Source: an uncultured Bacilli bacterium
Lineage (GTDB): Bacteria > Bacillota_I > Bacilli_A > RF39 > UBA660
Direction: 5' to 3'
Length of the DNA stretch: 64,000 nt
Assembly (NCBI GenBank): GCA_934086315.1
Contig: CAKOHZ010000002.1
Span: 296,464-360,463 of the forward strand
Of this stretch, positions 37,348-53,473 are shown piece by piece. The stretch's first letter is position 1, and each line of letters starts with the position of its first letter. The notes beneath the pieces are model-generated. The model was not told the origin of the DNA. It worked only from the letters and a program-made list of their open reading frames with translations, and did no database searches. The translations under genes were made by a program, and so were the position numbers.

Positions 37348-37713
37348 TTAGCCTTTAATAATATCATCAGAAGCAGTCTTACAATTAAATGGACTTGTAA
37401 TACATTTAGTACATTGTTTATAATCATCAGCACCTATTAAGTTCATAAGTACACCAACAATTGTTACAATTAAGAAAACTAATACTGCAGCGATTGCTTT
37501 TTTAATTAATTTATGTTGAGCATCTTTAATTTTATTCTCATCTTTTTCAGTAACAGCTTTAGCCATATCTAACATACCAACAACAATTAACATAATTGGT
37601 ACAACTACTTTAATAATGAAAATTGCGATACCAACTATTCTTAAAACTGGACCTAATTCATCACACAATTCGCCAGGTTGTACTGTAGTTAACACATTAA
37701 TTAAATTTAACAT
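37348..37713 (-). CDS. small two-TM membrane protein, last gene of the Tad-like cluster
   Basis: 121 aa. Two hydrophobic helices separated by a charged loop, and a Cys-containing C-terminus (CTKCITSPFNC). Confidence 0.5.
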   Translation of the reverse strand: MLNLINVLTTVQPGELCDELGPVLRIVGIAIFIIKVVVPIMLIVVGMLDMAKAVTEKDENKIKDAQHKLIKKAIAAVLVFLIVTIVGVLMNLIGADDYKQCTKCITSPFNCKTASDDIIKG

Positions 37714-37791
37714 AACTCATTTCTCCTTCTCTATATAAATTTTACATAATTTTTATTTTTTTGTCAACTATACACCATTTATATTTACTGG

Positions 37792-38736
37792 TTAAATTCC
37801 CATTTTGCTTATAAAGTTTTTAACTGGTTCAATATTATCTTGTCTATCATCACAAGGTGGTATAGTAGCGAATACTTTTAGTTTAGTTTCATACTCAAAT
37901 GTAGCTACATCTTCAGAGTTAAGTACACACTTATTTAATACAACTCTTTCATTTTTAAGCATTTCAAGTGCAGCTCTATTTTTTCTTAACATTTTATTTA
38001 TCATAATAGTTGATGGTTCTATTAAGTAATAAACTTGACTACATATTGAAACATCATCATAATCATTTAAATCAACAAGTACTACATCACACATTTGTTT
38101 CTTCATAAGTTCTTTTGGTAAATCTGAAGAAATAGTACTAACAAGATCTTTATCGTTAAAATATAAGAAGTCCACTTTATTTACCTCAATAGCACCTACA
38201 CTTCTAATTTCTGATAACATTTTTCTAATCATATAAATAAGAGTAGTAGCTCCAGCATGTTGAGTCATATTTTTAAATCCTATGATTCTCATCTTTCCGC
38301 CACCCATGCCCATACCATCAGAACCACTATTATCAGTAGTACCATAGTCAAGATCTTGTAAATTATGAATATTTACAACATCTCTATAAGTATGAGGATG
38401 AACTAATAAATAATTAATACCTTCAGCATTACGAGTAAAATTATAAATACCTAGTGATATTAATTTTGATAGATATGTCTTTGAATCACTTTCTGGACTA
38501 TCATCAAGTAATAAAATTACATTCTCCATATTTATATTCATCGCTAGTTTTTGTAAATTATCAGTATTTTGATAATCACGAATAGCAGTAATATCCAAAA
38601 TCATTTTATCATAATAGAAATTTGTAAAAGTATCTATTATCTCATCAACATTAAAGACCCCTTCCATGGACTTCATAACTTCAATATTTAAACCAATTAA
38701 AAGTTCTTTATATTTATTATAAACCATTACGTTCAT
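37792..38736 (-). CDS. TadZ/CpaE-like protein with degenerate P-loop
   Basis: 314 aa. MRIIGFKNMTQHAGATTLIYMI aligns to the MinD/ParA deviant Walker A (xxxSGKGGVGKTT) but has lost the lysines. N-terminal ~120-aa pseudo-receiver-like region. Clustered with CpaF/TadB/TadC homologs. Confidence 0.5.
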   Translation of the reverse strand: MNVMVYNKYKELLIGLNIEVMKSMEGVFNVDEIIDTFTNFYYDKMILDITAIRDYQNTDNLQKLAMNINMENVILLLDDSPESDSKTYLSKLISLGIYNFTRNAEGINYLLVHPHTYRDVVNIHNLQDLDYGTTDNSGSDGMGMGGGKMRIIGFKNMTQHAGATTLIYMIRKMLSEIRSVGAIEVNKVDFLYFNDKDLVSTISSDLPKELMKKQMCDVVLVDLNDYDDVSICSQVYYLIEPSTIMINKMLRKNRAALEMLKNERVVLNKCVLNSEDVATFEYETKLKVFATIPPCDDRQDNIEPVKNFISKMGI

Positions 38737-38762
38737 TATATCATCTCCCCTATCAAAATTTA

Positions 38763-39257
38763 TTATTCATTACAATTTAAACTACCAGTAACATCATAAA
38801 ACATAGTCTTAGTTTCACCAGCAATAGGTAATTTAACAGTGACTTCAATCACAGGTATAGTAAGTGCTATAAAAGTTGTTACTTTATAATAGATTTTACC
38901 ATTACCATCAGTAGGACAAAACTTTTTAAGACAATAGCCTCCATTTTGCATCTTTCCATCACCATTACAACCTGCTTGTTCTGCAGTATCATAATCATAA
39001 CCTAATGCTTTTATAAATGCAAATGCCTTTCCTTCAGTACTAGTATCAGTTTTTAATTGCTCCAAGTTAAAATCATGCAATCTAGCACTATCACTAGAAT
39101 ATGTAAAACCCTCATTTTTTTCAATTATATTAATGATTTCATTCTTGGCTCTAAAAGCTTTAGTGTAACTGATAGAATAAGCTAAAAATCCTGCAAATAA
39201 TGCAATAAAAATTATAACTAATCCAGTTAACCAAGTACCACCCATCGCATCCTTCAT
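38763..39257 (-). CDS. TadE-like pseudopilin candidate
   Basis: 164 aa. N-terminus MKDAMGG-TWLTGLVIIFIALFAGFLAY has the shape of a class III signal peptide (basic residues, Gly, hydrophobic helix). Confidence 0.45.
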   Translation of the reverse strand: MKDAMGGTWLTGLVIIFIALFAGFLAYSISYTKAFRAKNEIINIIEKNEGFTYSSDSARLHDFNLEQLKTDTSTEGKAFAFIKALGYDYDTAEQAGCNGDGKMQNGGYCLKKFCPTDGNGKIYYKVTTFIALTIPVIEVTVKLPIAGETKTMFYDVTGSLNCNE

Positions 39258-39353
39258 ATAACACTTCCTTTACAATTGTAGTATTTAAAAAGTACTACAG
39301 GTACATTGATATCAATCAATGACACCTATAGTACCAAAACTTAATACATTATA

Positions 39354-39659
39354 TTATGGTGTAGTTGTTCCACCTGTAGTTGTTCCACCTTCAGAATCTT
39401 GACCATAGTCAGTATCATAGCATTTGCCATTAGCATCGCCATCTCTACAACATTTCCAAACCTTAACAGTTGCTTGAGTACCATCGTCAAAACTTCTTAC
39501 ACTAACAGCTTGAAAGTCAGTACCATAAGTTCTACAAGTTTGATTAACTATAGATTTTTGAATCATTGGCCAAACAAATGCATAGAACAAACCACCAACA
39601 GCCGCAATAGCTATGATAGTAATAACTGTCATGTTTAATTCACCTGAAGCTTCTTTCAT
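39354..39659 (-). CDS. small pilin-like protein, Cys-containing with Thr/Gly-rich C-terminus
   Basis: 101 aa. MKEASG-ELNMTVITIIAIAAVGGLFYAF. Strong RBS AAAGGAGG. C-terminal GGTTTGGTTTP. Confidence 0.45.
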   Translation of the reverse strand: MKEASGELNMTVITIIAIAAVGGLFYAFVWPMIQKSIVNQTCRTYGTDFQAVSVRSFDDGTQATVKVWKCCRDGDANGKCYDTDYGQDSEGGTTTGGTTTP

Positions 39660-39729
39660 TTATTAGTCCTCCTTTACTTTCTAAAATAATTATACAATAT
39701 CGATTTTAATAAATCAATATTTATTTACA

Positions 39730-40527
39730 CTAAACACTCACAAACATTTGGAATATTGCTAGTACTAGAATAACCATAACACCTGCACCTGTTGATGTAA
39801 GCATTGTAAATGTTTTCTTTTCCATTTTTTCAAGACGTTCTTTATATTTAGTTTCTCTTGACTTATTTTGCAAATTTGAAATAGTTTTAGAGAATGCCAA
39901 TAATTGTTCTTGTTTTCTCTCCTGACTACCTAAACCAAGTCTATATAGAAGTCTCATCATACGCATACTATCACGAACAGGATATCTTCGAGCAAATGCC
40001 ATATAAGGTTCAATACTAGAGTCACCTGCATCTATAGAAGCTATCAAATCACGAAGTCCTGGTTTGAACATTTCTGGAGCTGTTTCTAAACTACGCGTAA
40101 TAGCAACAGGAACAGTATAGTGTTGAATTAAAATTTCTAAACTCTTTAGATAATATGGTAATTTCAAGTTGATATCATGTAAATGAACTTTGTAATAACT
40201 TTTTACTTTACTATAATCATCCTTAAACATAAGATAAGCACCAGCAAAACATAATACCAACTTAACAGCAAAATTAAGACTTTGAATACTAGTAATTGAT
40301 AATATCAAAAGTATTAAAAATGTAATAATAGCATTTTTTACTCTTTTTTGATATCTAAGATTTACGTCAACCTTTTCACCATATTTAGATACTACCAAGA
40401 AATCATAGTCATCTTCTTTTAATTTTGCAAATAGTACTTTATTATCATCAACAAACTTATTAAAATTAAAAGTACCTAAATAGTTAAATAACAATATAAT
40501 AATTACTCCAACAGCAAATATTTCCAT
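39730..40527 (-). CDS. TadC-like inner-membrane platform protein (T2SS-F family)
   Basis: 265 aa. TM-cytoplasmic domain-TM topology. Paired with, and start overlapping, the downstream TadB-like gene. Confidence 0.5.
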   Translation of the reverse strand: MEIFAVGVIIILLFNYLGTFNFNKFVDDNKVLFAKLKEDDYDFLVVSKYGEKVDVNLRYQKRVKNAIITFLILLILSITSIQSLNFAVKLVLCFAGAYLMFKDDYSKVKSYYKVHLHDINLKLPYYLKSLEILIQHYTVPVAITRSLETAPEMFKPGLRDLIASIDAGDSSIEPYMAFARRYPVRDSMRMMRLLYRLGLGSQERKQEQLLAFSKTISNLQNKSRETKYKERLEKMEKKTFTMLTSTGAGVMVILVLAIFQMFVSV

Positions 40528-41426
40528 TATTCAGCACCTACATCCTCATGGTAGTATTTTATACCTGATAGTAAGAAGTATGTATTAATTAATATTACAC
40601 CATGAAGTAATATTTGAACATACCATTGCTCAAGCAATTGTGTATAACTAGAATCACCTAATAATAATTGTACTAATAAAACTAATAAATACAGAGCTAC
40701 ACCAAATGTACAGAATTGTTTATAGAATGTTGTTCTATCAATTCTATCACGATATACACTTTCTACAAGCATATCTATATCTTGAAGCATGCCTTCTAAA
40801 GCTTCACCAGAATCTTTAGAACCTTCTTTAGTGATTTGTAAGAACAATTGATGCATATTCTTAATTACATAATAATCATATTTTTCATTCATAAAACGAA
40901 TAGCTTCATCGATAGTACCATTTTCATAAGACATTTGTATCATTTCTTTGACATCGCTTAATAATGGTTCCTCTAGTACTTCAGAATCTCTAACGCCTTC
41001 TAATGCTTTAACAAATGATTGTGTAGTGTTAAATTCCATAATAACATTAGTTGTATATACTTGAATTTGTTCAAATATATACTCACTATATGCCTTTTTA
41101 CATCTCATATAAGTCAAATATGGAATTACCATTATAGCGGCTGCAGCATACACTATACTCCATATAATACTATAAAAGTACAAGAATGAGACAAATGCAG
41201 CACCAACACCAAATACTACAATTTGAATAACATACTGGCGAGTTGAATATTCTTGTCCTAATTCTTTTGCTTTCTCACGAACAACTTTAAAAGAATAAGG
41301 AGCATATTTTTCATAAGTATTTGCAATAGTCTTAGTAATAAATTTGTATGAATTGTCACCAGTATTTTTTCTATATATTAATACAAATATAACAATAATA
41401 GCAACAATAATTATCTCAAAATACAT
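40527..41426 (-). CDS. TadB-like inner-membrane platform protein (T2SS-F family)
   Basis: 299 aa. Three to four TM helices flanking a cytoplasmic helical domain. Adjacent to the CpaF-like ATPase. Confidence 0.5.
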   Translation of the reverse strand: MYFEIIIVAIIVIFVLIYRKNTGDNSYKFITKTIANTYEKYAPYSFKVVREKAKELGQEYSTRQYVIQIVVFGVGAAFVSFLYFYSIIWSIVYAAAAIMVIPYLTYMRCKKAYSEYIFEQIQVYTTNVIMEFNTTQSFVKALEGVRDSEVLEEPLLSDVKEMIQMSYENGTIDEAIRFMNEKYDYYVIKNMHQLFLQITKEGSKDSGEALEGMLQDIDMLVESVYRDRIDRTTFYKQFCTFGVALYLLVLLVQLLLGDSSYTQLLEQWYVQILLHGVILINTYFLLSGIKYYHEDVGAE

Positions 41427-41441
41427 ATAACACCTCCATTA

Positions 41442-42884
41442 CTAAATTTCTACCATTTCTATATTATTAGTAGTTTGATTAACTACTGGTTCTTCTACAA
41501 TTAAATGTTCTTCTTGTGGTTCATTAACTACAGGCTGCACCATAGCCCCTGCAGCAACAGGTTGAGCAGTAACAATTGGTTCACTAGCAACCGGTTCACT
41601 AACGACTGCAACTTCCGAAACAGTATTAGGACCAGGACTAATTTCCGATTCACTTGCTACCTCAGAACCTACATTAGCAACATTATTGTCAACAATTTCA
41701 GGTTCATCAGAAGTGTCTCCATTCTGAATATTATTAACCTTCGCACTCTCTACACCACTACCAACAGTAGAAGTACCTTCGGTACTTTCACTTTGCTCAC
41801 CACTTGCTTCTTGTAATTCACTGCCTTTAGGTATAAATGGATCTTCTTGCATCATAACACCTTGTGACGCTAAATAATCAATTAAATGAGAAGTTGGATT
41901 ATTATATACTTCATTTTCCATCAAATCACGAGCATACAATATATTAACTTTTGCTTCATTAGTTTCATCATCAACATAAAATTCAACAACTTGAGTAATT
42001 TCTCTTTGAAATCTATTATATTTTTTTGAAAAGAAACCTTTAACGTGTATACCTAACTGAATATATCTATGCATACCTTTAACAAATTGATCAATATCTT
42101 GACTACTTTCAAGTAGTGAGTAAAGACGCATTGGAATACTTGAAGCTTTATCAGAGTGTATTGTAGATAAGATATTATGTCCTGAAGAAATTGAGTTACG
42201 AACAGCAAGAACAGCTTCTGCAGAACGAACCTCTGATAGTAAAATCCATCTTGGGTTTTGACGCATACAGGCTACCAAAACATCTGAGTAAGAAGCAATA
42301 TTATTTGTTTTCATTGCTACTATATCACGAGTTGGATAAATTTTATCCAAGTGAAGTTCTAATGTATCTTCAATTGTTATTATTTTTTCATCCTCTTTAA
42401 TATGACTTGCTAAGTATTTAACAAGCTCTGTTTTACCTGAACCAGTTTCTCCACTTACAAGAATATTACAGTGACCACCAACACAAGTCATCAAAAAGTC
42501 ATGAAGTTTTAAAGAAACATAATCTTCTTTAACTAATTTATCTTTATTCAATCTTATTTTTGCTGGAGTTTTTCTTATTAGAACAGCAATTCCATTCGTT
42601 GCAATAGAATCATGTACAAAGTTAAGACGTAACTCAGCACTTTCGGCATCTAGTAATGGATGTGCCATATTAAATGTTTTACCCATAACGTTAGAACATT
42701 GGAAAGCAAGTTTTTCCATTACTTCATTATTTAATCCCTCAATATGAGCTGGTTTAACACCTTGTGTTAAAGTTTTAATCCACAGCTGACCATTATTAGA
42801 ATACGAAATATCGGTAATATCATCATCTTCTAAAAGAGGCATTAACAAACCAAAGTCTATTTGTGAAAATACAGCATCCTCCAT
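41442..42884 (-). CDS. CpaF/TadA-family secretion ATPase with ~130-aa acidic low-complexity C-terminal tail
   Basis: Walker A NILVSGETGSGKTE, Asp box IITIEDTLEL and Walker B-like RWILLSEVRS. The tail is rich in E/S/V/P (…VASESEISPGPNTVSEVAVVSEPVASEP…). Confidence 0.8.
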   Translation of the reverse strand: MEDAVFSQIDFGLLMPLLEDDDITDISYSNNGQLWIKTLTQGVKPAHIEGLNNEVMEKLAFQCSNVMGKTFNMAHPLLDAESAELRLNFVHDSIATNGIAVLIRKTPAKIRLNKDKLVKEDYVSLKLHDFLMTCVGGHCNILVSGETGSGKTELVKYLASHIKEDEKIITIEDTLELHLDKIYPTRDIVAMKTNNIASYSDVLVACMRQNPRWILLSEVRSAEAVLAVRNSISSGHNILSTIHSDKASSIPMRLYSLLESSQDIDQFVKGMHRYIQLGIHVKGFFSKKYNRFQREITQVVEFYVDDETNEAKVNILYARDLMENEVYNNPTSHLIDYLASQGVMMQEDPFIPKGSELQEASGEQSESTEGTSTVGSGVESAKVNNIQNGDTSDEPEIVDNNVANVGSEVASESEISPGPNTVSEVAVVSEPVASEPIVTAQPVAAGAMVQPVVNEPQEEHLIVEEPVVNQTTNNIEMVEI

Positions 42885-42905: not shown

Positions 42906-43760
42906 TTATTCAGTAATGTTTATATCTCCTCCATTACCATTGTTTCCATTATCGCCGTTATCACCATTGTCAGTAGAATCATCAACAAAATCTAATGGAA
43001 CTTCCCTTGTTTCTTTAAGTATTAAATTTGTTAAATACTCACTAGAAACTTTTGTACTTCCTGGATTATAATTAGCATTTCTAACAACTGGAACCAAACT
43101 ACCAGTTCCAGAAATAGCTATAGCTTTTCTTAATAACAAGTGTAAGTCTTCAGGAACAGCAAAAATTAACGCAGAAGCATCTTTTTGATTAGCTCCTTTC
43201 TTAAAAATATGTGACCCATCACTATCTTTAACAGCTAAAACTGTAATACCTTCAATTAATTTACCAAAAACAAGTTTTCCACCATCACTAGTCATATAAT
43301 ACAAATCAATTGCATCTCCAGGATAAATAGAGTTACCATATGTAGTATTTGTAGAAACACTTAGTGAGAAAATTGTATAATCTTTATAAATGTTATTCCA
43401 AGCTGAATCAGGCATAGAATCCCAAGTAACAATTTCAGAACTATAAAATAAACTACCAGCAGGAATTATTGTATTATAATTAACATATTTTCCAACAACA
43501 TTCTTTTTATCACGAACAACAGTTGAAGTAACTAAAGAAGAAGCTACTTTAACAACACCTACATCTTCTTCTTTAATTTCCTTACGAGCACTTAAGTCTA
43601 TTAAAGCATACGGAACTTCAATTGCATTAATTGCTTTATTTACACGATAATTATAAGCAAGAAACAATATTATTAAACATGCAACACCAGCAACAATAGT
43701 AACTAAGCCTTTATTGCCTAATAATTTTTTAATAGCATTATTCATCCTATTCACCTCCAT
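42906..43760 (-). CDS. CpaB/RcpC-like pilus assembly protein
   Basis: N-terminal TM then a SAF-like segment (IEVPYALIDLSARKEIKEEDVGVVKVASSLV). C-terminal Gly/Asn/Asp-rich tail. Confidence 0.55.
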   Translation of the reverse strand: MEVNRMNNAIKKLLGNKGLVTIVAGVACLIILFLAYNYRVNKAINAIEVPYALIDLSARKEIKEEDVGVVKVASSLVTSTVVRDKKNVVGKYVNYNTIIPAGSLFYSSEIVTWDSMPDSAWNNIYKDYTIFSLSVSTNTTYGNSIYPGDAIDLYYMTSDGGKLVFGKLIEGITVLAVKDSDGSHIFKKGANQKDASALIFAVPEDLHLLLRKAIAISGTGSLVPVVRNANYNPGSTKVSSEYLTNLILKETREVPLDFVDDSTDNGDNGDNGNNGNGGDINITE

Positions 43761-44595
43761 TTACAACATTATTTGTATTTGAATCTACTTCAGAATTAGG
43801 ATTATCTATCTCAATATTTTTTAAATCTTCATTATCAACATTAACAGTTTTTGATAAAATTAACTCTTTTAAATAAGTACTACTAATTCTTGTATCTTTA
43901 GGATTATTAGAATAATCAGCATTACGAGGTACCGGAAAAATAGTACCGGATGTATACAATGCTTTTCTTAACAATAAGTGCATATCTTCAGGAATAGAGA
44001 AAATCAAATATCTAGGTTTTTCAGTAACACCACTTTTTTCAAATATATTATTATAATTACTATCAGTAACTGCTAAAACTCTAATACTTTCAATAAATTT
44101 TCCTATTAAAAGTTTCCCATCATTATCGTATCCTTGATAATATAAATCAATATAGTTATCAGTAAAAATTGAATTACCATATGTTGTTTCTATAGTAACA
44201 GGTAAAGCTACAATTGTATTACCATCAGCAATATTTTCATAAATACTTGATGGAAGCTCATCCCAAGTTAACAAAGTATTGTTATAAAACATACTATCAG
44301 CAGGAATTTCTACTTTATTACTAACATACATACCAATTATTCTGCTAGATTCAGTAATAACATTAGCAGTAATAACTTTTCCTGGAACTTTTCTAGTACC
44401 AACCATTTCAGAAGTTATTAAAGTTCTTGGTAACAATGTTTTAATAGCATATGGAACCATTCTAGGTTCAGTTGCTTTTTCAATTCTCCACCAATAAGCC
44501 CAATAAATTATAAGTAAACAAACAATTACTGCAAATATAGTTACAGTATTTTTATTTTTAAAAAATCTTTTAACCCCTATTAATACACTATTCAT
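43747..44595 (-). CDS. CpaB/RcpC-like pilus assembly protein, paralog
   Basis: Same architecture as the adjacent gene (…RMVPYAIKTLLPRTLITSEMVGTRKVPGKVI…). Confidence 0.55.
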   Translation of the reverse strand: MNSVLIGVKRFFKNKNTVTIFAVIVCLLIIYWAYWWRIEKATEPRMVPYAIKTLLPRTLITSEMVGTRKVPGKVITANVITESSRIIGMYVSNKVEIPADSMFYNNTLLTWDELPSSIYENIADGNTIVALPVTIETTYGNSIFTDNYIDLYYQGYDNDGKLLIGKFIESIRVLAVTDSNYNNIFEKSGVTEKPRYLIFSIPEDMHLLLRKALYTSGTIFPVPRNADYSNNPKDTRISSTYLKELILSKTVNVDNEDLKNIEIDNPNSEVDSNTNNVVNGGE

Positions 44596-44692: not shown

Positions 44693-45847
44693 TTAATTTC
44701 TTGTATACTTAAATCTAAGTTTCCATTTAATACCAGTATACATAAAGCATCTAACAGTTCCACCATTTTCTGCGGTTTTTGATTTAACTAAATTTCCATT
44801 TGCAGAAGATCTATTTCTATATTCTGCATTATATCTTAATTTAATTTGAATAGATGCTCTTTCACTATTAGTAGATGTATCATATGTTGTATAAAGATTA
44901 CAAGTGACTCCAATATTACTCACTTCACTCGCAGTAGCAAAGTAATTGAAGTTTTCTTCTACTGGAACAGTTCCACCATTATCTCCAATTAAATATTGTT
45001 GGAATTTTTGTTTCATAGTTTTATAATTTCTAACATCATTAATACTTTCAAATACTTTAGCAGAACTAGCAATAACTTCACAACTCTTAATTCTTCCTGC
45101 AATAATGTCTTCGTTCATTCCATTAGGTAATGACTTGTATGACATTAGGAATGACATATTTCCAGTAGTAGAACTATTATTGCAAGAGCCAGTTTCACTA
45201 TTATAAGCACTTGGGTTTTGTAAATATGCAATAGAATAGAAATCTAATACATTTGAAGTTAATAAGTTACTGTCATCAGGAGTTGGATTTACAGTATTTC
45301 CTCCACCGCCATTATCTCCTCCACCATCAGGAATATTTGGAGTTGGTGTAACATTTCTAGAACTACCATCAGGACATGCAACAGTAATAGTACTGCTTCC
45401 ACCTCCATTTCCATCTTCATCAGAATCTCCATCTGCTTGGCTATATATAGTTTCCAATATACCATTTACTAATGTATCCAAGTTAACATCAAAAGATGTT
45501 TCTTTAATATTAGCGGTATTTCCAGAACTAGTTCTTACACGAACACTAGCTTTAGGTGGTTCTTCATATATATCATAAAATTCTAGTTTATAAGTTTTAT
45601 TATTAGTAACACTTTCTGAAAATCTTCTAATGAAAACCTCAACAAATTTTTGTTCTGACATTACAAGTCTACCAGTTGTTCTATATGTACCATAGTCAAC
45701 TGCATCTATCATAGAAGATTCTAAAACCTCACGTGCTAAATAGAAATCTTCTTCAGAAGTTGTAGTCATTCTTTGAATTAAAAGCAAGATGACTACAATT
45801 ACAACTCCACAAAGTACTACAAAATATCCCCAAAATGAATGTTTCAT
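44693..45847 (-). CDS. pilin-like N-terminus protein with Gly/Ser/Asn-rich central region
   Basis: 384 aa. MKHSFWG-YFVVLCGVVIVVILLLI at the N-terminus. Central DGNGGGSS...GGGDNGGGGNT low-complexity segment. Confidence 0.5.
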   Translation of the reverse strand: MKHSFWGYFVVLCGVVIVVILLLIQRMTTTSEEDFYLAREVLESSMIDAVDYGTYRTTGRLVMSEQKFVEVFIRRFSESVTNNKTYKLEFYDIYEEPPKASVRVRTSSGNTANIKETSFDVNLDTLVNGILETIYSQADGDSDEDGNGGGSSTITVACPDGSSRNVTPTPNIPDGGGDNGGGGNTVNPTPDDSNLLTSNVLDFYSIAYLQNPSAYNSETGSCNNSSTTGNMSFLMSYKSLPNGMNEDIIAGRIKSCEVIASSAKVFESINDVRNYKTMKQKFQQYLIGDNGGTVPVEENFNYFATASEVSNIGVTCNLYTTYDTSTNSERASIQIKLRYNAEYRNRSSANGNLVKSKTAENGGTVRCFMYTGIKWKLRFKYTRN

Positions 45848-45862: not shown

Positions 45863-48800
45863 CTATGGATTTGAAAATTTAACAGTTTCAACATCATAAC
45901 TATTATTAGGTTGAGAAATTTCTTCTAAGAATGATGATTTACATTTATAGAAACCATTTAATCCACTTGGATCATTAACTAATTGACAAGATAAATAACT
46001 ATTGTCTTGGTAACCAACACCCATTAATTCTTGTTGAGTATTGTATTCTCTAATTCTACTAATTGCAGTTGGTGTAAGAATGAAACTATATTTTAAATTA
46101 CTTTCATCAGCAAACATATCGTCGCCCTTTTGTTCTATTTGTGTTTTTACATTTTCACCTAATGTTGTTGCCCAGTTTGTACCAATAGGCCTATTATTTT
46201 TTGTTGTATTAGAATCGTTTTGATCAGATGTAACTGAATTTGGGAAAACATTAGTTAAATCAATATTTCTATATACAAAACCATATCCTTTAGATTCATT
46301 ATCTTTTAACTCAAACTCATTACATTCTTTAGTAATAACCGGAACACCAGCAACTAATTTATAACAACTATTTTTACAAGCACTTAAATCCAATTTTCCA
46401 TTAGATGTTCTAGTAGCACAATCATATAAATTTGTTGTGTTGTAAACATCATATGAACATGTATAATCTAATGACACGTTATCATCAACAACAATTTTAA
46501 CATTATCGATATGTTGTTTTACAGTATAATTGCCTGTCTTACCTCCAGTATTTAATCCATTACTTACAGGATATTCTTCATTTCCTAATGGAGTCGTTAA
46601 ACCATTTCTACCTGCTTCTCCAACTTCACCAGTATAAGCACCAGCAGAGAATTTATCGCTACGCCAGAAATCAGTTTCAGTAACTACAACAAATGACGCG
46701 TAATCATTAGTAGGCAAAGATATTTTCTTTTTCTTACATTGAACGCTATTTAAAGTACCCTCACATTCAATTAAATCATGATCTTTCAAAGAATTACCTT
46801 TATCAAGTTCAACCTCTTGACCTTTCACATATTTATAACAATCAGGATTTCTATCATCATTATTTTTACAAAAATAAGTTTTGTTTAATTTTTCAGATGG
46901 CAATGTTTTTGTTTCTTTTTCAATTGTGACATTTTTGCCATATAACTCATCTTCATATTCTACTTTTAATTCTGCACAATCATTATTACTATCACTGCAT
47001 ACAGCTTTATCAAGTAAAATATTTTTTGCAGAACCTTTAGCACTTTTATTAATGCTTGCTGCTATAGTTCCATGATGTTCAGTACTAACATTTTGATAAA
47101 CATCTTCAATCTTTGGGGCAGTATCACCTGTTGCAACATACATATTACAATTTTGCAGATCATATATTAACTGAGCAACAGCATCCAATGCAGATTTATA
47201 TAGTTTATAATATTTATCTTCATCATCTGATGCTTTAGCAGGATCTCCTGGATCTCCTCTATTACAACTTCCGCTAGTACCATAACCATCATCATGCCCA
47301 CAACAAGAAGTTCCATTCTCACCACAAGAATAATCATGATTACAAGTGGTAGGATAACAAGAACTACTTTCATTTTCAACACCTGAATCTGTACTATAAG
47401 AGCCATTACTACATCTTATGTTAAAATTAACTCCCTTTTCAGAACCTGATTCAACCCAACAATACTTATATGGTATGCTTGAACCCTTAGTTGGCCAATA
47501 TAAATGCCATTGAATTGGTGGTAAATATTCACCAACTGAGCAATCTCCTGGACATCCAGTACCAGAATAACATTGTTTTCCTTCAATCAAAACTTGATGT
47601 GGTCCACCATTATTTTCTTCCCAGCTTAATGCTGATTCATATTTCTTCCATTCTACATAAGCATCCATCATTTTCTTCACAGCAGCATCATACTGTTGTA
47701 ACCAAGTATTCTTATTACCATATTTATTTTTAGTATCATAATAAATTTCTGAAGTACATTGTTGTTTTTGAAGAACTATACTAGTCAATGCAACATCAGT
47801 TCTTACAATTTCAGTAACATCTTCCTCACAAGCAAGAACGGATGGACCAATATCATATCTAAATTGCATTCCAGCATAAACTTTCTTTTTGTTTGCTAAA
47901 TAGAACACAACTTCTTTACGACAATACAAATCACAAACATTTTTATTAAGACCTACTTCTTCAGTTTTTCTAAATTGTAACTTATCTGAATCTTTACATG
48001 GATGTAAAATACAGTTCATATATGGATCTGATTTATCAAAACTATCATAACCATCGTAATTATTTCCACAAGTTGCTTGACCTAAATCTCCAGATAAAGT
48101 TTTAGATACTGGATTAAAGTCAGTACATTTTGTATCATCATTGCAAGGACAATCAGAGTACACAGATTTTTCAAACTTTTTATCTGTAGATGAATTTGGA
48201 CCACTTTCTTCCCTTTGTGACTTATTAAAAACAGCAGTATACATTATTTGATATAAACTAGGATTAATACAATGTCTATATTCTCTTATTAATCCAACTG
48301 AATTATATCCTTTTAATGTAACTTCAAAAATATACTTTTTCATTGAACTCTCAGATGTTTCAGTAGTACTACAAGTCATACTACCGCCAACTTCAAGTTC
48401 GCATTTTTCTTTACTACATGTACCACCTACAAGAGATAAATCTCCTTGTGGAACCTTAACTTTATTACCATTAGCATCTGTATAAAATACTTGAACATAC
48501 ATTCTACATCTAGAATCCTTCTTTAATAATTGATCTAAAGTACATTCAACCTCATATGTTTTAGTGGTTGTTTCTCTCTCATATTGTTCTATAAAAGATG
48601 TAGGCCATTTAGCTACCATACTAGCCCCACCATTATCTTTTTTTGAAGCCTCTATTTGAAATTTATCATCATTAGTGCCAAGTAAACCATCAAGAAATTT
48701 TTCACTACTATTACCATTAAACATATCTAATGCTTTGTTAAATAAAGGAATAGCAGCAATATAATTATTATTGCCAGACAAATTACCACAAAGCACACCT

Positions 48801-49804
48801 AGATTAGAATCGCTCTTAGCTTGCCAACATTCTTGTCCAGTATAACCACCAGCAGCAGCTTTAGCTGTACTTAAATAAACTTTAGTAGTTGAAAAATAAT
48901 CAAACTCTTGCTCAAATCCAACACCATCAACACCACTAATTGGATTACCTTTTACATTACCATAATATGAAGTCCACATTCTTAGAGCTGTAGTAACAGC
49001 ACCAAAGCCATATTCAGCATCATTACTAGTAAAAATTGTGTTACCATTACTATCAGTTGAAGGTATCATAGTATAATATAATATTTGTGCAAGACCACAA
49101 TAATAATGATTTTGTAACTTGTCATCACAATCTTTTAAATTCATTTCTTTATTTAAACAATAAGTTTCACCAGCAGCGCTAGGGCCTTTTTTACCTGGTT
49201 GTATACAATATGCACGATCACTACCATTTAATAAATATTCCCAAACAACAGAATCTTTTAATTTATCATTAAAACTTCCACTAACATTAGGATTACCTCT
49301 AACGCCTATTTTATAAACAGTTCTAAGTTCATCTGTAGCACAATAATTATTACAACTGCTTTGACAATAACTATTACATTCACCAGAACTATTATAACTT
49401 GTACCAGTAATATCACATTTATAATGGCCACGATAATCATATGTACAAGTTCCAGTAGCTATATGTTGTCTACACTCATCAGGAAGCATATCGCTAGCAC
49501 CATCTAAAGTACATTTATTTCTTACTGTTTGCATAGAATAAACACAAGCGTTAGGATCACTGCTACCAGTTGCTTTCCTACAAGCTTCTTGAGCAGCTTC
49601 TAAACCTGTATATGTTTTAGTATCCATAACAAAATCATCTTTTACTGTAGTATACTCTGCACCAGAAGCACTAACCCAATGCTGTCCAATCTTAGCTGTT
49701 GCTCCTGATGCACTAATTGTTACCCTATCATTTATACTTTCGGCATTTACATAACCAAAGCACAATAGTAAAGAAATAATTAATAAACTAAGCTTCTTCT
49801 TCAT
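45863..49804 (-). CDS. giant secreted cysteine-rich protein (1313 aa)
   Basis: Sec signal MKKKLSLLIISLLLCFGYVNA. Cys clusters throughout (e.g. SGECNSYCQSSCNNYC, SCYPTTCNHDYSCGENGTSCCGHDDGYG). Contains an RGD tripeptide. No C-terminal anchor. Confidence 0.65.
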   Translation of the reverse strand: MKKKLSLLIISLLLCFGYVNAESINDRVTISASGATAKIGQHWVSASGAEYTTVKDDFVMDTKTYTGLEAAQEACRKATGSSDPNACVYSMQTVRNKCTLDGASDMLPDECRQHIATGTCTYDYRGHYKCDITGTSYNSSGECNSYCQSSCNNYCATDELRTVYKIGVRGNPNVSGSFNDKLKDSVVWEYLLNGSDRAYCIQPGKKGPSAAGETYCLNKEMNLKDCDDKLQNHYYCGLAQILYYTMIPSTDSNGNTIFTSNDAEYGFGAVTTALRMWTSYYGNVKGNPISGVDGVGFEQEFDYFSTTKVYLSTAKAAAGGYTGQECWQAKSDSNLGVLCGNLSGNNNYIAAIPLFNKALDMFNGNSSEKFLDGLLGTNDDKFQIEASKKDNGGASMVAKWPTSFIEQYERETTTKTYEVECTLDQLLKKDSRCRMYVQVFYTDANGNKVKVPQGDLSLVGGTCSKEKCELEVGGSMTCSTTETSESSMKKYIFEVTLKGYNSVGLIREYRHCINPSLYQIMYTAVFNKSQREESGPNSSTDKKFEKSVYSDCPCNDDTKCTDFNPVSKTLSGDLGQATCGNNYDGYDSFDKSDPYMNCILHPCKDSDKLQFRKTEEVGLNKNVCDLYCRKEVVFYLANKKKVYAGMQFRYDIGPSVLACEEDVTEIVRTDVALTSIVLQKQQCTSEIYYDTKNKYGNKNTWLQQYDAAVKKMMDAYVEWKKYESALSWEENNGGPHQVLIEGKQCYSGTGCPGDCSVGEYLPPIQWHLYWPTKGSSIPYKYCWVESGSEKGVNFNIRCSNGSYSTDSGVENESSSCYPTTCNHDYSCGENGTSCCGHDDGYGTSGSCNRGDPGDPAKASDDEDKYYKLYKSALDAVAQLIYDLQNCNMYVATGDTAPKIEDVYQNVSTEHHGTIAASINKSAKGSAKNILLDKAVCSDSNNDCAELKVEYEDELYGKNVTIEKETKTLPSEKLNKTYFCKNNDDRNPDCYKYVKGQEVELDKGNSLKDHDLIECEGTLNSVQCKKKKISLPTNDYASFVVVTETDFWRSDKFSAGAYTGEVGEAGRNGLTTPLGNEEYPVSNGLNTGGKTGNYTVKQHIDNVKIVVDDNVSLDYTCSYDVYNTTNLYDCATRTSNGKLDLSACKNSCYKLVAGVPVITKECNEFELKDNESKGYGFVYRNIDLTNVFPNSVTSDQNDSNTTKNNRPIGTNWATTLGENVKTQIEQKGDDMFADESNLKYSFILTPTAISRIREYNTQQELMGVGYQDNSYLSCQLVNDPSGLNGFYKCKSSFLEEISQPNNSYDVETVKFSNP

Positions 49805-50490
49805 TATTCTTTACTTCCTTTCTTTTTGTAAATAAATATAATAACAATATAAAATAAAGATATAACAACAACTGGAATGACTACAAAATACCAATACGAT
49901 TTAATAAAATTCCAAACCTTTTGAAAAAAATTAAGCTTAGGAGTAACATCTGGATTGATAATTTCACCAAAATCATCGTGATTTAATTCAGAAGAATCAT
50001 AGTCAATTGAACAAATATCTTCATTTAAGTGCGCTTGACAATATTCAGTATCTCTATAAGTGTTATAAGCATTTACCTTATGAGAGAATTCTTTTATCTT
50101 TTCATTTGGACACTTAGATTTATCTCCACCATAAACTGTTATATTATAAGTTTTTGGTTCAAAATGAATATATGAACCTATCACATATGAATCAAAGAAG
50201 TCATCATAATAACCACTGTATTTCTCATTGCTCTCGCTATCAGTAACTTCTACTTTAACTTTATCTTTCATACCTCTTAAGGTATCACCAAAGCTTAATA
50301 AATAAAAATATTTTCTTTCACGTTCAACTTTATTATCTTTTCCTACTATCTCAAGATCTTCGACCAAAAATACATCCAATTTTTCAGCTAAATTATTTAA
50401 TTCATAATCATTGCATAAAGCGAATAATTTAGGTTGAAAAATCAAAGTAAATAATAGTACTAAAAGTAAAAGATTTATTTTCTTTTTCAT
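49804..50490 (-). CDS. secreted protein with C-terminal TM anchor and basic tail
   Basis: Signal peptide. C-terminal YWYFVVIPVVVISLFYIVIIFIYKKKGSKE. Start overlaps the stop of the giant gene. Confidence 0.55.
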   Translation of the reverse strand: MKKKINLLLLVLLFTLIFQPKLFALCNDYELNNLAEKLDVFLVEDLEIVGKDNKVERERKYFYLLSFGDTLRGMKDKVKVEVTDSESNEKYSGYYDDFFDSYVIGSYIHFEPKTYNITVYGGDKSKCPNEKIKEFSHKVNAYNTYRDTEYCQAHLNEDICSIDYDSSELNHDDFGEIINPDVTPKLNFFQKVWNFIKSYWYFVVIPVVVISLFYIVIIFIYKKKGSKE

Positions 50491-50547
50491 AATTCACCTA
50501 CTTTTCCTATTAAAAATTATAGCATACTTTTTTTTACATTTCCACTA

Positions 50548-51204
50548 CTAAATTCCATGTTTAACTTTTCTTAGTTTACCATTAAAAATAAGGATTGTTA
50601 CACTACTAGAAATAACAACTAATAATATTTGAATTCCCCACCTGACAGTAAAATCTTTAATGTCGTCAAGTATTGTCCTATTAATATCTGGATCTTCAGG
50701 CTCCTCAACTGGAATTGAATTATTATAGTTTTTTATCATACTATCAAGTAAATCTTCAGTTGGTTTATAATTCAAGAATTTAGAAGTACATATCGTAAGT
50801 TTATTTCTATATCCATTACATTTACTATTATCATAAATTGTATTATAGTATGGTAACGAAATTTGTATAGTTCTTAAGTTTGAATTACAAGTTGTTTCAT
50901 TTGTATTAACATAAATGTTAAGTGAATTTCCTTCACTTAAATTTTTAATAGTTACTTCAAAATTTTTTTCTTCAGATGAAGAAAAAACCTCACTATTATA
51001 ACTTAAATATAAACCCTTAATTATGTTATAAAATTTAATTGTATATTCTTTTTTATTTTTATTATACGAAGTTTCATATTCAATATTCATTGAAGCTTTT
51101 TGATACTGAACAAACAATGAATTATCACAACCACCAGTATTACTAGTCGCATTAACAGCAAACGGTATCATTAAAAGTAACGCTATTAAAATTTTCTTTT
51201 TCAT
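50548..51204 (-). CDS. secreted protein with C-terminal TM anchor and basic tail
   Basis: Signal peptide MKKKILIALLLMIPFAVNA. C-terminal ILLVVISSSVTILIFNGKLRKVKHGI. Confidence 0.55.
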   Translation of the reverse strand: MKKKILIALLLMIPFAVNATSNTGGCDNSLFVQYQKASMNIEYETSYNKNKKEYTIKFYNIIKGLYLSYNSEVFSSSEEKNFEVTIKNLSEGNSLNIYVNTNETTCNSNLRTIQISLPYYNTIYDNSKCNGYRNKLTICTSKFLNYKPTEDLLDSMIKNYNNSIPVEEPEDPDINRTILDDIKDFTVRWGIQILLVVISSSVTILIFNGKLRKVKHGI

Positions 51205-51220
51205 ACATTTTCCCTTTCTT

Positions 51221-52873
51221 TTATTCTTTTATTAAAACTGCATGTACTACTAATCTTTTTTCACCATTTCCAGCACATGTAGATAATGTTAAAATTTTAT
51301 CTCCATACTCTATTTTATCATTTGTCTTAAAAGTACTTCTTCCTCTAATAAGTTTAACAAAACTATCAAATTCTTTTTTATTTTCAAAATCAGTTTTTAA
51401 ATAATCAGTAGTGTAATTAACTCTATACCCAGCAAATATTTTAAATTTGTATTCTCCATTAGGAGTATCATAGCTAATAATCATATTCTCACTATTCTTT
51501 CTAAAACTTGAAGTAAGAACATATCTTAATGTACCAAACATTGTACCATTAAGCATACTATGGCCATATATAATATTATTTGAACTAAAGTTAACACTAT
51601 CATTTCTATAATCCATATATAACCAACCCATAGAACTTTTTCTTTTATAGAAATCTCTAGATAGATAATAACTATTATCAGAATGTTGAACTACTGGATA
51701 ATTAATTTCAGTACCATTAATTGTTAAAAATCCAACTGTTTCTTTATTAATCTTTTTTAGTTTAGAAAACACCTTCTCAAAATTATATCTACTATTTGTT
51801 TTATTTTCATTATTTGAAGTATTTGTATTACTATTAGAACTATTATTACTGTTATCAATATCTTCATCATTATTTTCACTATTGTTATTATTTTTATCAT
51901 TAAATCTATCTAATTCGAAATTATTATCAGCTGCGTAACTACCATTATTAATAGCATTATTTAACTCATCAATACTCATCTTTTCAACATATTCATACGA
52001 CTTAACAATAATCAAACTAACTAAGCTTACATAAACGCATAATAGAGATATAAGTTTTAAATTGTTAAATGTTAATTGTTTAAACAAATTATTAAACAAG
52101 AATGTATTAGAATATACGATTCTAAACTCACAAGTATATTCATCTTTACATTTCTTGTTTAATTCTTTTAACCAAGCAAAATTTTTAGTAATAAAGTTAT
52201 CCTCATCATAGCTTTGATGCAAGAACACAATTATATTCCTAGATTCGTCTTTTTTTACTAAATCAATAATTGAACCTATTAGTTCCTTTGAAAACACATA
52301 TATATGTATAGATTTAAGATTATAATTAATTCTTAAAAATTCTTTTAAATCTAAAAGTAACGTACTATAGTTTTCTCTAATTTCTATATTCTTTTTATAA
52401 TATAATGTTTCATAATCAAAAGCATCCTGAAGTAACATAAATCTATCAGATACCTTCTCTTTATTATATAGATTTACTTCAACTCCATTAATTTTAAACT
52501 TATCAATAATGAATTTAGGCATATAATAACAATCTATTTTCTTTAGTGAATTTACTCCTAAAAACATTTCATAATCTGCAAGACCTATTGTAGAAGGAAA
52601 ATCTAATCTTAAATAACTTATATTTAATTCATCTAAAATATATATACTATATTTAAAAGTAATTAATCTTTTTATTGTAAGTATATCTATATTATTATTC
52701 TTTAAAAGTTCTATTACTTTAGAATAATTTTTTCTATAATATTTAAGTGTTAAAAATAATGAAGCATTATAAAACTCTAAACTATTAACATGTTTACTCT
52801 CTTCATCATTAATAGTTCTAAAGTCAAAGAATAAAGTTTTATCTCTAATTGTCAAAACAATATATTCTTTCAT
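51221..52873 (-). CDS. sortase class-B-like catalytic domain fused to an N-terminal ~270-aa cytoplasmic domain via a TM helix and an Asn/Ser-rich linker
   Basis: The C-domain (GFLTINGTEINYPVVQHSDNSYYL…IIYGHSM…ILTLSTCAGNG…RLVVHA) matches the SrtB motifs (INYPVVQ, YGH, LxTC, conserved Arg). TM LISLLCVYVSLVSLIIV around residues 270-290. The N-domain is unassigned. Confidence 0.65.
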   Translation of the reverse strand: MKEYIVLTIRDKTLFFDFRTINDEESKHVNSLEFYNASLFLTLKYYRKNYSKVIELLKNNNIDILTIKRLITFKYSIYILDELNISYLRLDFPSTIGLADYEMFLGVNSLKKIDCYYMPKFIIDKFKINGVEVNLYNKEKVSDRFMLLQDAFDYETLYYKKNIEIRENYSTLLLDLKEFLRINYNLKSIHIYVFSKELIGSIIDLVKKDESRNIIVFLHQSYDEDNFITKNFAWLKELNKKCKDEYTCEFRIVYSNTFLFNNLFKQLTFNNLKLISLLCVYVSLVSLIIVKSYEYVEKMSIDELNNAINNGSYAADNNFELDRFNDKNNNNSENNDEDIDNSNNSSNSNTNTSNNENKTNSRYNFEKVFSKLKKINKETVGFLTINGTEINYPVVQHSDNSYYLSRDFYKRKSSMGWLYMDYRNDSVNFSSNNIIYGHSMLNGTMFGTLRYVLTSSFRKNSENMIISYDTPNGEYKFKIFAGYRVNYTTDYLKTDFENKKEFDSFVKLIRGRSTFKTNDKIEYGDKILTLSTCAGNGEKRLVVHAVLIKE

Positions 52874-52933
52874 TACGCACTCCTAGTATACAAATATATA
52901 ATAACATAAATCTAAATAAAAAAAAATATGAAA

Positions 52934-53473
52934 CTATTCAATTCCATATTTTTCAATCATTTTCTCAAGTACTTTATAATTAATATATTTAAGCTCACTA
53001 CTCATAGCTTCTTGAGCTTCTCCATCTTTAATATATATAAGTAATGGAGCATTAGTAATTTGATCTTTAATATTAGGATATTTTTCTTTTAATGTAACTA
53101 AATAATCAGTATTATCTCCATAATCAGCTACATTCCAATATATAAAATCATCTAATAAATCTTTCTTTTCTAAAACACTATACATTTTTTTCTCGTTACT
53201 ATATATTTCGTCATTACCAGTATAACTTACATATAAAAGTACATCTCCTGTTTCAGTTAAAGCAAAATCAGCATCTTTTGAATTAATTTGTTTTACTTTT
53301 TGATCTAAGAATACACTAGTATTTAATTTATTATTTTTATAAGTTAAATAGAAAGTTCTTAAATATAACGAAAGTATTATAACTAATATAGACACAACCA
53401 ATACAATAAAATAATTACGAGTTGGTATCTTTTTATCAAATATTTCAAATTTCTTCTTTAATAATTTCTTCAT
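52934..53473 (-). CDS. membrane-anchored hypothetical protein, Cys-free; first gene of the cluster
   Basis: N-terminal TM YFIVLVVSILVIILSLYL. RBS GGAGGA. Confidence 0.5.
   Translation of the reverse strand: MKKLLKKKFEIFDKKIPTRNYFIVLVVSILVIILSLYLRTFYLTYKNNKLNTSVFLDQKVKQINSKDADFALTETGDVLLYVSYTGNDEIYSNEKKMYSVLEKKDLLDDFIYWNVADYGDNTDYLVTLKEKYPNIKDQITNAPLLIYIKDGEAQEAMSSELKYINYKVLEKMIEKYGIE

Follow-up and report, generated by a model that had tools for sequence, protein, structure and literature searches.

The described systems that come closest to the one considered here are the Tad/Flp (type IVc) pili, including that encoded by the tad locus of the monoderm Bifidobacterium breve. Among type IVa pili, the tip adhesins PilY1/PilC, of about 1000 amino acids (aa) or more, are exported by the Sec pathway, encoded beside minor pilin genes and docked on the minor pilins. 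In Myxococcus, the Kil Tad pilus has paralogous gene clusters for minor-pilin ‘Tips’, which are rich in disulfides and vary in their distal domains (Herrou et al. 2025, PMC12075869). For gut bacteria, a language model has predicted an operon in Roseburia, Ruminococcus and Eubacterium that contains CpaF, PilC/GspF and DUF5411 and was classed as ‘secretion-related’ (Miller et al. 2022, PMC9523054), and a literature search found no description of the system beyond this one. Here, we describe a block of 15 genes from an uncultured Bacilli bacterium (GenBank assembly GCA_934086315.1, contig CAKOHZ010000002.1), which lies in a stretch of 64,000 nucleotides (nt; positions 296,464 to 360,463 of the forward strand), referred to below as the window. 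We hold with moderate confidence that the block belongs to the type IV filament superfamily, as a divergent monoderm member whose nearest known counterparts are Tad pili and in which a DUF5411 protein serves as minor pilin and a giant cysteine-rich protein as exchangeable tip.

Gene order and its conservation across species

The block consists of 15 open reading frames (ORFs) on the minus strand, running from 53473 to 37348 and named g1 (52934-53473) to g15 (37348-37713) in the direction of transcription. An earlier description of this DNA, made from its letters alone (the sequence-only reading), gave fifteen genes in its text and sixteen in its title, of which the former agrees with the ORFs counted in 37348-53473. 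It also spoke of co-oriented, tightly spaced genes with overlapping starts and stops, and this was confirmed: intergenic spacing ranges from -14 to +97 nt, the stop of g4 overlaps the start of g5 by 1 nt, g10 and g11 overlap to the same extent, and 15 nt separate g5 from g6 and g9 from g10. At the centre of the argument stand three adjacent genes:

g4, 49804-50490, minus strand: 228-aa paralogue of g3 with signal peptide, 4 conserved Cys, C-terminal transmembrane (TM) helix and basic tail
g5, 45863-49804, minus strand: 1313-aa secreted giant with Sec signal peptide, 58 Cys and no anchor
g6, 44693-45847, minus strand: 384-aa DUF5411 protein (PF17424; 1.8e-48, 164.3 bits against a cut-off of 30)

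The system is widespread. A scan of one genome per species matched at least 549 stretches with a gene for a DUF5411 relative, and 78 of these loci, from different species, were fetched; nearly all belong to uncultured Bacilli of the gut whose labels read ‘Tenericutes’, Erysipelotrichaceae or ‘Clostridium sp. CAG’. Because the arrangement recurs in dozens of species-level genomes, it is not a product of chance. The run from g6 to g15 is conserved across the 78 loci, and a giant ORF (925-1600 aa, 23-68 Cys) abuts the start of the DUF5411 gene in 56 of the 65 loci (86%) with enough upstream sequence, ORFs of at least 700 aa being counted; the gaps between the two are 0-16 nt in the mapped loci. 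A giant is present in seven of the other nine, but there a sortase module (g1-g3, see below) intervenes between giant and DUF5411. The secretion ATPase lies within 6 kb downstream in 46 of the 56 loci (82%) and further off in four more, and in 6 of the 56 the DUF5411 module stands away from the core, with the giant included in five of these. Some loci (L018, L051, L062) contain two copies of the triad of g4, giant and DUF5411, and some (L029, L039, L044, L055, L062) have it apart from the core. Linkage of core and giant across related genomes had been set beforehand as a test of the sequence-only reading; these counts uphold it, the linkage of giant and machine is well supported, and the giant is truly part of the system. 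Identity to the window is 62-98% for the ATPase and 60-97% for the putative platform protein g10, and only 22-65% for the giant, the range also found for giants between species; the motor can be up to 98% identical in species whose giants agree at about one residue in three. A near-constant motor combined with a divergent giant points to an important machine whose outward face changes rapidly.

The same counts bear on the view that the block joins two unrelated neighbours, a sortase-dependent surface-protein module (g1-g5) and a Tad-like operon (g6-g15), which we consider distinctly unlikely. It would account for the absence of the sortase module from 21 of 48 loci and its shifting position relative to the giant (as in L018), for the loci just mentioned whose DUF5411 modules lack the core, and for the lack of any sorting signal tying the sortase to a pilus protein. 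It sits poorly, however, with the regular abutment of giant and DUF5411, which is maintained even though giants are only about 20-30% identical and is then followed by the core, and with a consensus scan that found no terminator-like site on the minus strand between g5 and g6 or elsewhere from g1 to g15. For g1-g3 alone, separate origin may hold. Two individual loci carry insertions: a lactate/malate dehydrogenase gene between the ATPase and platform genes (L051, 12456-13415) and an IS605 TnpB fragment between the DUF5411 and CpaB genes (L018, 10581-11081).

The putative motor, its subunits and the giant

Three consecutive genes are proposed to encode the motor:

g9, 41442-42884, minus strand: 480-aa secretion ATPase (T2SSE, PF00437; 4.6e-28, above the cut-off)
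g10, 40527-41426, minus strand: 299-aa polytopic membrane protein, proposed TadB-like half of the platform
g11, 39730-40527, minus strand: 265-aa membrane protein, proposed TadC-like half of the platform

The ATPase g9 is a T2SSE superfamily member with Walker A (GETGSGKT), Asp box, Walker B and His box all intact. Its earlier placement with CpaF/TadA stands at the level of the superfamily and not at that of the subfamily, as the NCBIfam models VirB11, TadA-conjugal, TrbB and FlaI score nearly equally (2e-33 to 1e-29), all below their cut-offs. The closest plasmid relatives are Bacillota proteins of the ‘CpaF/VirB11 family’ (about 1e-28). Related ATPases in the loci span about 370 to 550 aa, and the C-terminal 140 aa of g9 (41442-41900) form an acidic low-complexity tail rich in Ser, Val, Glu and Pro.

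The products of g10 and g11 are likely, but not proven, to form a split platform, a reading based on their position after the ATPase, on profile-profile comparison and on fused homologues. Profile searches of Pfam, NCBIfam and PDB sequences, by contrast, were blank for the T2SS-F family to which both had been assigned. A profile search of 1.84 billion representatives gave 282 relatives, and the distant full-length ones were added to the g10 profile. In hhalign, this broad profile matches platform-like proteins of Gram-positive plasmids (probability 96.8%, E 2.9e-10), which adjoin CpaF/VirB11 ATPases on Bacillus pXO1 and on Paenibacillus and Lactococcus plasmids and are annotated only as hypothetical or FlaJ. 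It also matches proteobacterial TadB/TadC (42-51%, E about 2e-4) over 220-230 co-linear columns, with a score of 41.5, where column shuffles gave 8.9 (standard deviation (sd) 1.5) and the reversed profile gave 17.0. In the same type of comparison, g10 matches g11 (41%, E 2.8e-4) and g11 matches the Gram-positive plasmid proteins (78%, E 1.8e-5). Distant homologues of 489-720 aa (P0384, P0379 and P0389) have a g10-like N-terminal half fused to a g11-like C-terminal half, the latter matching the g11 profile at 1e-17 to 5e-12 in hmmsearch, and P0389 weakly matches T2SSF itself (4.4e-3, profile positions 15-120 of 125). Such a fusion in one chain mirrors the one-protein, two-domain build of GspF/PilC, and the order of the block, an ATPase gene followed by genes for two polytopic proteins of about 280 aa, is the tadA-tadB-tadC order of Tad loci. 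The fused protein P0379 bears an extra Lys/Glu-rich N-terminal extension of 220 aa. Clustered at 90% identity, the g10 family forms more than 8000 groups, and Pfam annotates none of them; the matches listed in an alignment search with g10 were all at least 78% identical and unannotated. A 95%-identical homologue (P0133; loci L087-L089) is named ‘Holdemanella sp. SCCA2’ by NCBI, on contigs with the gene order of the window and a GC content of 27.5%, which we take to be lower than that of Holdemanella, so that the isolate may carry the wrong label or its culture may be a mixture.

The candidate filament subunits are g6, already listed, and two small proteins:

g12, 39354-39659, minus strand: 101-aa candidate major pilin with N-terminus MKEASGELN, hydrophobic helix and short Cys-containing C-terminal part
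g13, 38763-39257, minus strand: 164-aa candidate minor pilin with N-terminus MKDAMGG, hydrophobic helix and globular part with conserved Cys

The g12, g13 and DUF5411 families all begin with a short conserved stretch, M[KR]E[AS]x(x)G, ahead of a hydrophobic helix, and are in this respect laid out like a class III (prepilin) signal. The family consensus is MKEATG/ELN for g12 (M1, A4, G6, E7, L8 and N9 invariant in 24 aligned sequences), MREAIG/G for g13 (M1 and G6 invariant in 23) and MKESxW[GA]/Y for DUF5411 (M1, W6 and Y8 invariant in 25). In the window, g6 begins with MKHSFWG/Y and continues with a long hydrophobic helix, a small beta-sheet (aa 1-133 in all) and a variable beta-rich C-terminal domain. 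Tandem duplication, common among flp genes, is seen for both g12 and g13 in distant loci. Where three to four proteins with pilin-like N-termini had been proposed, these three retain the description and the final gene, g15, does not. Pfam searches with 102 orthologues returned no T2SSF, TadZ, TadE or Flp match, and TadE (PF07811) was likewise not matched by g13, g6 or their orthologues.

The DUF5411 protein, encoded directly after the giant and overlooked in the sequence-only reading, is the signature of the whole system and has a pilin-like N-domain. An AlphaFold2 model of g6 (mean predicted local distance difference test score (pLDDT) 69.5; about 65-85 in the N-domain) comprises an N-terminal helix of 46 residues, a pair of short helices and a sheet of three strands; it weakly resembles minor type IV pilins, and a Foldseek comparison with the PDB gave no match. 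The N-domains are 60-78% identical, and the C-termini vary widely, with modules that include Flg_new (adhesin) repeats, dockerin, Peptidase_C39_2, VanY and PT-HINT/intein, as would be expected of a modular pilin presenting cargo. These modules could also suggest contact-dependent antagonism like that of the Kil system, with tips and polymorphic DUF5411 C-termini delivering toxic or lytic modules to neighbouring cells. The PT-HINT/intein, Peptidase_C39_2 and VanY modules, the multi-copy triads and the Kil precedent all speak for this, and yet no toxin or enzyme domain is recognisable in the DUF5411 C-domain or the giant of the window, an immunity-like gene was not identified, and about 60% of the DUF5411 proteins encoded in the loci have nothing beyond the N-domain. 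We regard such antagonism as very unlikely here, and as a functional variant of the pilus reading rather than a true alternative to it.

Four further proteins complete the conserved run:

g7, 43747-44595, minus strand: 282-aa CpaB/RcpC-like protein with N-terminal TM anchor (RcpC 5.4e-3, TIGR03177 3.7e-5, both below cut-off)
g8, 42906-43760, minus strand: second CpaB/RcpC-like paralogue, 279-284 aa (RcpC 4.1e-5; TIGR03177 2.2e-7, residues 20-230); start uncertain by 5 codons, gene callers placing it 5 codons downstream
g14, 37792-38736, minus strand: 314-aa cytoplasmic protein, possible TadZ analogue from its alignment
g15, 37348-37713, minus strand: 121-aa two-TM hairpin protein (T4SS_pilin, PF18895, 4.4e-4), final gene of the unit

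Both g7 and g8 match the CpaB model nearly end to end, though below the family cut-offs; the tandem CpaB/RcpC pair proposed earlier gains from the orthologues what the window proteins alone do not give, as all 19 match RcpC at 0.01 or better (best 1.4e-8) and three match SAF. In g14, a variable linker joins a receiver-like N-domain to a MinD/ParA-like C-domain, whose P-loop lacks the Lys (GFKNxTxHAG[AS]T) and is followed by hhhhD and then LNK; the conserved blocks of this C-domain were lined up with MinD/ParA by eye. Of the TadZ-like protein with degenerate P-loop that had been claimed, the Lys-less P-loop is present, and profile searches of Pfam, NCBIfam and PDB sequences gave no TadZ match. 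Among hhalign comparisons with four TadZ/CpaE-type proteins there was one weak score (24.5, null 14.0, sd 1.9). The PDB is reported to hold a TadZ structure from Eubacterium rectale (Xu et al. 2012, as cited in PMC12786226), although the search of PDB sequences with the g14 profile gave nothing. It is as a possible TadZ analogue that g14 enters the model. Profile support for the T2SS-F, CpaB and TadZ assignments had been the other test set for the sequence-only reading, which half failed it: T2SS-F and TadZ drew no match, CpaB stayed beneath its cut-offs, and the platform assignment is recovered by indirect evidence alone. In distant orthologues (L045-L080), a C-terminal extension ends in an amphipathic GKLFSIFK, resembling the membrane-targeting helix of MinD, which is absent from g14 of the window and its close relatives. 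The hairpin protein g15 looks like a VirB2-type two-helix protein with no N-terminal pilin signal; all eight orthologues match T4SS_pilin (best 8.9e-6), and g15 also matches a pilin-like family of mycoplasma integrative and conjugative elements (ICEs).

The giant itself, described earlier as a 1313-aa Cys-rich secreted protein, indeed has the signal peptide and the 58 Cys. Its conservation profile shows islands at about aa 200-250, 600-650 and 1200-1300 in an otherwise fast-evolving sequence, and no Pfam or NCBIfam family was found for it, with 28 relatives included in the orthologue scan, nor any match in a PDB-sequence profile search. Thioester domains pair a Cys in [YFL]C-phi-[DNEQ] with a Gln in TQxA-phi-W. 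The first island of g5 carries AYC[ILV][QND]P, similar to the Cys half of this pair, and one of the 28 relatives matches TED_2 (4.7e-4); a thioester-domain adhesin was nevertheless rejected, the downstream motif (T)ALRxW having Ala in place of Gln in 28 of 28 sequences. An AlphaFold2 model (aa 130-1313, 15 sequences) was unusable (mean pLDDT 43) and gave no fold match, its Foldseek matches to pore-forming toxins being rejected as artefacts of low-confidence hairpins. In an alignment of 17 orthologues, which included loci lacking the core (L029, L055, L044), g4 is always directly upstream of the giant. Cys counts are even in every exported protein of the block, which fits a disulfide-stabilised surface assembly.

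Taken together, a Tad-like core is likely, and the following model is proposed. The hexameric ATPase g9 would drive the split platform g10 and g11 in the membrane, with g14 possibly positioning the machine as TadZ does. The subunits with the M[KR]E[AS]x(x)G N-terminus and hydrophobic helix, which may be processed at that N-terminus, would be extracted from the membrane and polymerised, g12 as the main and g13 as a minor subunit, and the membrane-anchored CpaB-like proteins g7 and g8 would provide the conduit across the cell wall. At the tip, g6 would act as a minor pilin on which the Sec-exported giant g5 and its membrane-anchored partner g4 dock, so that g5 is displayed as an exchangeable disulfide-rich adhesin or effector. 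In the sub-clade that includes the window, the class B sortase fusion g2 with g1 and g3 may add a wall-anchoring step. In this form, the earlier idea of a Gram-positive Tad-like fibre or secretion machine with a Cys-rich giant survives as a whole, the evidence for its Tad-like core being in part indirect.

Several observations weigh against this filament model. Pfam, NCBIfam and PDB-sequence profile searches with g10, g11 and 33 orthologues gave no match, nor did those with g14 (20 orthologues being included for NCBIfam). Pfam and NCBIfam do not recognise g12 or g13, g12 and its orthologues match no Flp family in Pfam, and the N-termini of g12, g13 and DUF5411 lack both the Flp G/XXXXEY signature and the +5 Glu of type IV pilins; g12, with MKEASG/ELNMTV, has no Glu-Tyr at +5/+6. 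Neither the window nor the 78 loci contain an A24 prepilin peptidase, as searched with the expression GxGD[VI]K and with Pfam on selected ORFs (in the window, those of at least 120 aa except 23842-25803 and 27173-27601). A secretin or Flp-family pilin is also missing from the block, the remaining window and the 78 related loci, so that the sequence-only reading was right on all three absences; that of the secretin is to be expected for a monoderm. In addition, the Tad model leaves the resemblance of g15 to T4SS pilins unexplained, the giant has a Sec signal peptide and not a pilin N-terminus, and its docking on g6 is read solely from the adjacency of the two genes.

The same components would also serve a secretion machine that is not displayed as a pilus, in which g12, g13 and g6 form a pseudopilus piston, as in type II secretion, that pushes the Sec-exported giant and the DUF5411 C-terminal modules through the wall and releases them. 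The Sec signal and missing anchor of the giant, the enzyme and HINT modules of DUF5411 relatives, which are typical of released effectors, and the term ‘secretion-related’ that Miller et al. apply to the Clostridia relative would all agree with this, and sequence cannot separate display of the giant from its release. However, no cargo recognition of the type II secretion kind is known in monoderms, and the tight one-to-one pairing of giant and DUF5411 suits a stoichiometric complex better than a relation of machine and cargo. On the whole, we rate release as rather unlikely and continue to favour the displayed filament.

Sortase module and chromosomal setting

Upstream of g4, the block begins with three genes that form a module of their own:

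g1, 52934-53473, minus strand: 179-aa N-terminally anchored DUF6568 protein without Cys (PF20207; 4.4e-24, 85.6 bits against a cut-off of 27.1)
g2, 51221-52873, minus strand: 550-aa protein with conserved cytoplasmic domain (aa 1-270), TM helix, Asn-rich linker and extracellular class B sortase
g3, 50548-51204, minus strand: 218-aa protein with signal peptide, ectodomain with 4 conserved Cys, C-terminal TM helix and cytoplasmic tail K.KHGI

The membrane-anchored protein reported ahead of the core proves to be the DUF6568 protein g1, which moves together with g2 and g3 in related loci even where the gene order differs (L018). Likewise, the sortase-B-like domain said to be fused to a cytoplasmic domain is a true class B sortase (TIGR03064, 5.5e-50, 169.9 bits against a cut-off of 153.75) that matches the PDB SrtB proteins of B. 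anthracis, C. difficile and S. aureus at 3e-56 to 1e-49, its catalytic H438, C533 and R540 being invariant in 15 orthologues; the N-domain (aa 1-270) has no Pfam or PDB match. The two bitopic secreted proteins are the paralogues g3 and g4, with their four conserved Cys each and no family match in Pfam or NCBIfam. In 14 aligned orthologues of g3 the tail K.KHGI is invariant, and the gene always adjoins the sortase. Only g3, g4 and a spore-germination permease combine a C-terminal TM helix with a basic tail in the window. A sorting signal of the NPxTN, NPKTG or SPxTG type is not conserved in g3, g4 or their orthologues, and their candidature as classical sortase substrates is unsupported, there being no conserved sorting motif before the TM helix. 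Of 48 loci, 27 have the module, and all of these belong to the closer clade. Contrary to its inclusion in the system by the sequence-only reading, the sortase fusion is a clade-specific accessory and not part of the conserved system. To our knowledge, this is the first time that a class B sortase has been linked to such a machine.

Consensus scans for transcription signals returned the following sites around the block:

53499-53527, minus strand: promoter-like site (TTGAAA, 17-nt spacer, TG, TAAAAT) 5' of g1
37317-37332, minus strand: terminator-like hairpin and T-run, 16 nt past g15
37304-37276: promoter-like site for the LtaS gene, beyond the g15 hairpin
54155-54184: match to a bidirectional terminator closing the divergent HD gene

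The site 5' of g1 sits in the 117-nt divergent gap before the HD gene. Promoter-like matches are abundant in AT-rich DNA (147 observed against 128 expected), and the four terminator-like sites compare with 2.7 expected and are weak evidence taken alone; in such DNA, these consensus matches only suggest a single transcription unit.

The surroundings are chromosomal, with a spore germination operon, a wall teichoic acid cluster, a SUF operon, MBOAT/DHHW genes, LtaS, PcrA and signal peptidase I, and profile searches bore out both the LtaS-like and the HD identity of the flanking genes. An identical sequence is found on metagenome contigs reaching 756 kb. This setting bears on a possible derivation of the block from Gram-positive type IV secretion systems, as an apparatus for conjugation or DNA transfer. 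VirB11 is the best NCBIfam score of g9, one near plasmid relative of g9 sits in a pLS20-type conjugation operon with VirD4 and VirB4, and g15 has the T4SS_pilin and ICE matches mentioned above. On the other hand, no block protein matches a VirB4, VirD4 or relaxase family in Pfam or NCBIfam scans, the block lies among housekeeping genes and is flanked by LtaS and HD genes in related species too, its GC content (28.4%) is unremarkable beside that of the window (26.1%), and megablast against plasmids gave no close match. We give this derivation hardly any weight; a mobile-element origin of the block was rejected on its chromosomal context and ordinary GC content.

Elsewhere in the window, a GerA/GerAC/spore-permease operon (2194-5758, plus strand) indicates that the host is a spore-forming member of the Bacillota, despite the ‘Tenericutes’-type labels on related metagenome-assembled genomes. 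The wall teichoic acid cluster (10291-18680, minus strand) contains a fusion of DUF6056 with a PIG-L deacetylase (705 aa), two TagF-like glycerophosphotransferases, a zinc alcohol dehydrogenase, an IspD/TarI-like cytidylyltransferase, GpsA and a TagO-like GT4. Three large consecutive ORFs follow (20017-25803, plus strand): the first combines SH3_3 repeats, a cadherin-like domain and a dockerin, which is also found C-terminally in some DUF5411 relatives, the second has a cadherin-like domain, and the third spans 23842-25803. Two DUF285 (BspA-like repeat) surface proteins flank the region beyond the block (54182-55792 and 63059-63877, minus strand), and a BspA-family protein also lies within the cluster adjoining the CpaF/VirB11 ATPase of a Lactococcus plasmid. 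An 864-aa protein (56026-58620, minus strand) belongs to no Pfam or NCBIfam family and has homologues in 10 related loci, some of them beside the HD gene. A type I signal peptidase (Peptidase_S26; 60955-61506, minus strand), 7.5 kb upstream of the block, is the sole signal-processing peptidase in the window and probably a housekeeping enzyme.

Significance and relation to known systems

The system is widespread, experimentally uncharacterised and has several features that a specialist would not expect. Its hosts are uncultured low-GC gut Bacilli of humans and animals, whose contact with their surroundings is little known, and host adhesion, phage reception and bacterial antagonism are candidate roles. 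The model would give DUF5411 a role and offers a natural test case for type IV filaments that function without a locus-encoded prepilin peptidase. More tentatively, we put forward the possibility of a separate, unnamed branch of type IV filaments in monoderm gut Bacilli and Clostridia, with its own leader M[KR]E[AS]xG, no dedicated locus-encoded prepilin peptidase, and DUF5411 as an ‘adaptor pilin’ that mounts interchangeable giants or polymorphic enzyme and toxin modules at the tip. If true, this would be a main tool for contact with host, glycans or neighbours in a large part of the uncultured gut microbiota.

Compared with known systems, the sortase g2 has the same full catalytic domain as SrtB of S. 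aureus, B. anthracis and C. difficile, but it also bears a conserved 270-aa cytoplasmic N-terminal domain. The giant shares with PilY1 neither sequence nor detectable fold similarity, and the beta-propeller of PilY1 was not found in it. The operon of Miller et al. likewise places DUF5411 beside a CpaF-type ATPase and a platform protein in gut Bacillota, with other genes mostly unrecognisable; compared by its description, it has 8-9 genes, comes from Clostridia and includes an internalin-like protein, and its authors mention neither a giant Cys-rich partner nor a CpaB pair, a sortase fusion or a reading of DUF5411 as pilin-like.

Like Tad loci, including that of B. breve, the block encodes a T2SSE ATPase followed by two polytopic proteins of about 300 aa, N-terminally anchored CpaB-like proteins, a cytoplasmic receiver-like and MinD-like protein, and small subunits made up of a short leader, a Gly and a hydrophobic helix. 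In contrast to them, it lacks the Flp G/XXXXEY signature, family matches to TadE, TadF or TadG and a TadV in the locus, its platform and TadZ-like proteins are too diverged for Pfam and NCBIfam, and CpaB is duplicated; DUF5411, the giant, g4-type genes, a VirB2-like hairpin protein and, in one clade, the sortase fusion are added. A Tad-like sub-module can also occur inside a Gram-positive type IV secretion system: in the pLS20-type conjugation operon of a Paenibacillus larvae plasmid (L083, 3915-14065), a CpaF/VirB11-family ATPase lies between VirD4 and VirB4, where a protein annotated as FlaJ is encoded upstream of it and a hypothetical, platform-like one downstream. The closest plasmid relatives of g9 and g10 are encoded in a cluster of Bacillus pXO1 annotated as CpaB, AAA-ATPase, CpaF/VirB11, a platform-like protein and two small pilins.

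With the Kil system, the block has in common a conserved machine together with several paralogous clusters, some of them remote from the core genes; in the Kil system these clusters encode large, variable, disulfide-rich distal proteins built on pilin-like helices. The two systems are not similar in sequence, the block has no type III secretion-like partner (T3SS*), and the large tip protein KilN/TadG is itself a pilin, whereas here the giant is exported by Sec and only its neighbour DUF5411 is pilin-like, so that the tip role in the block is one we infer. The closest match of the machinery is with Tad pili, above all with the annotated but unstudied tad-like cluster of Bacillus pXO1, and in its logic the system would appear, by analogy, to come closest to the Kil Tad pilus of Myxococcus.

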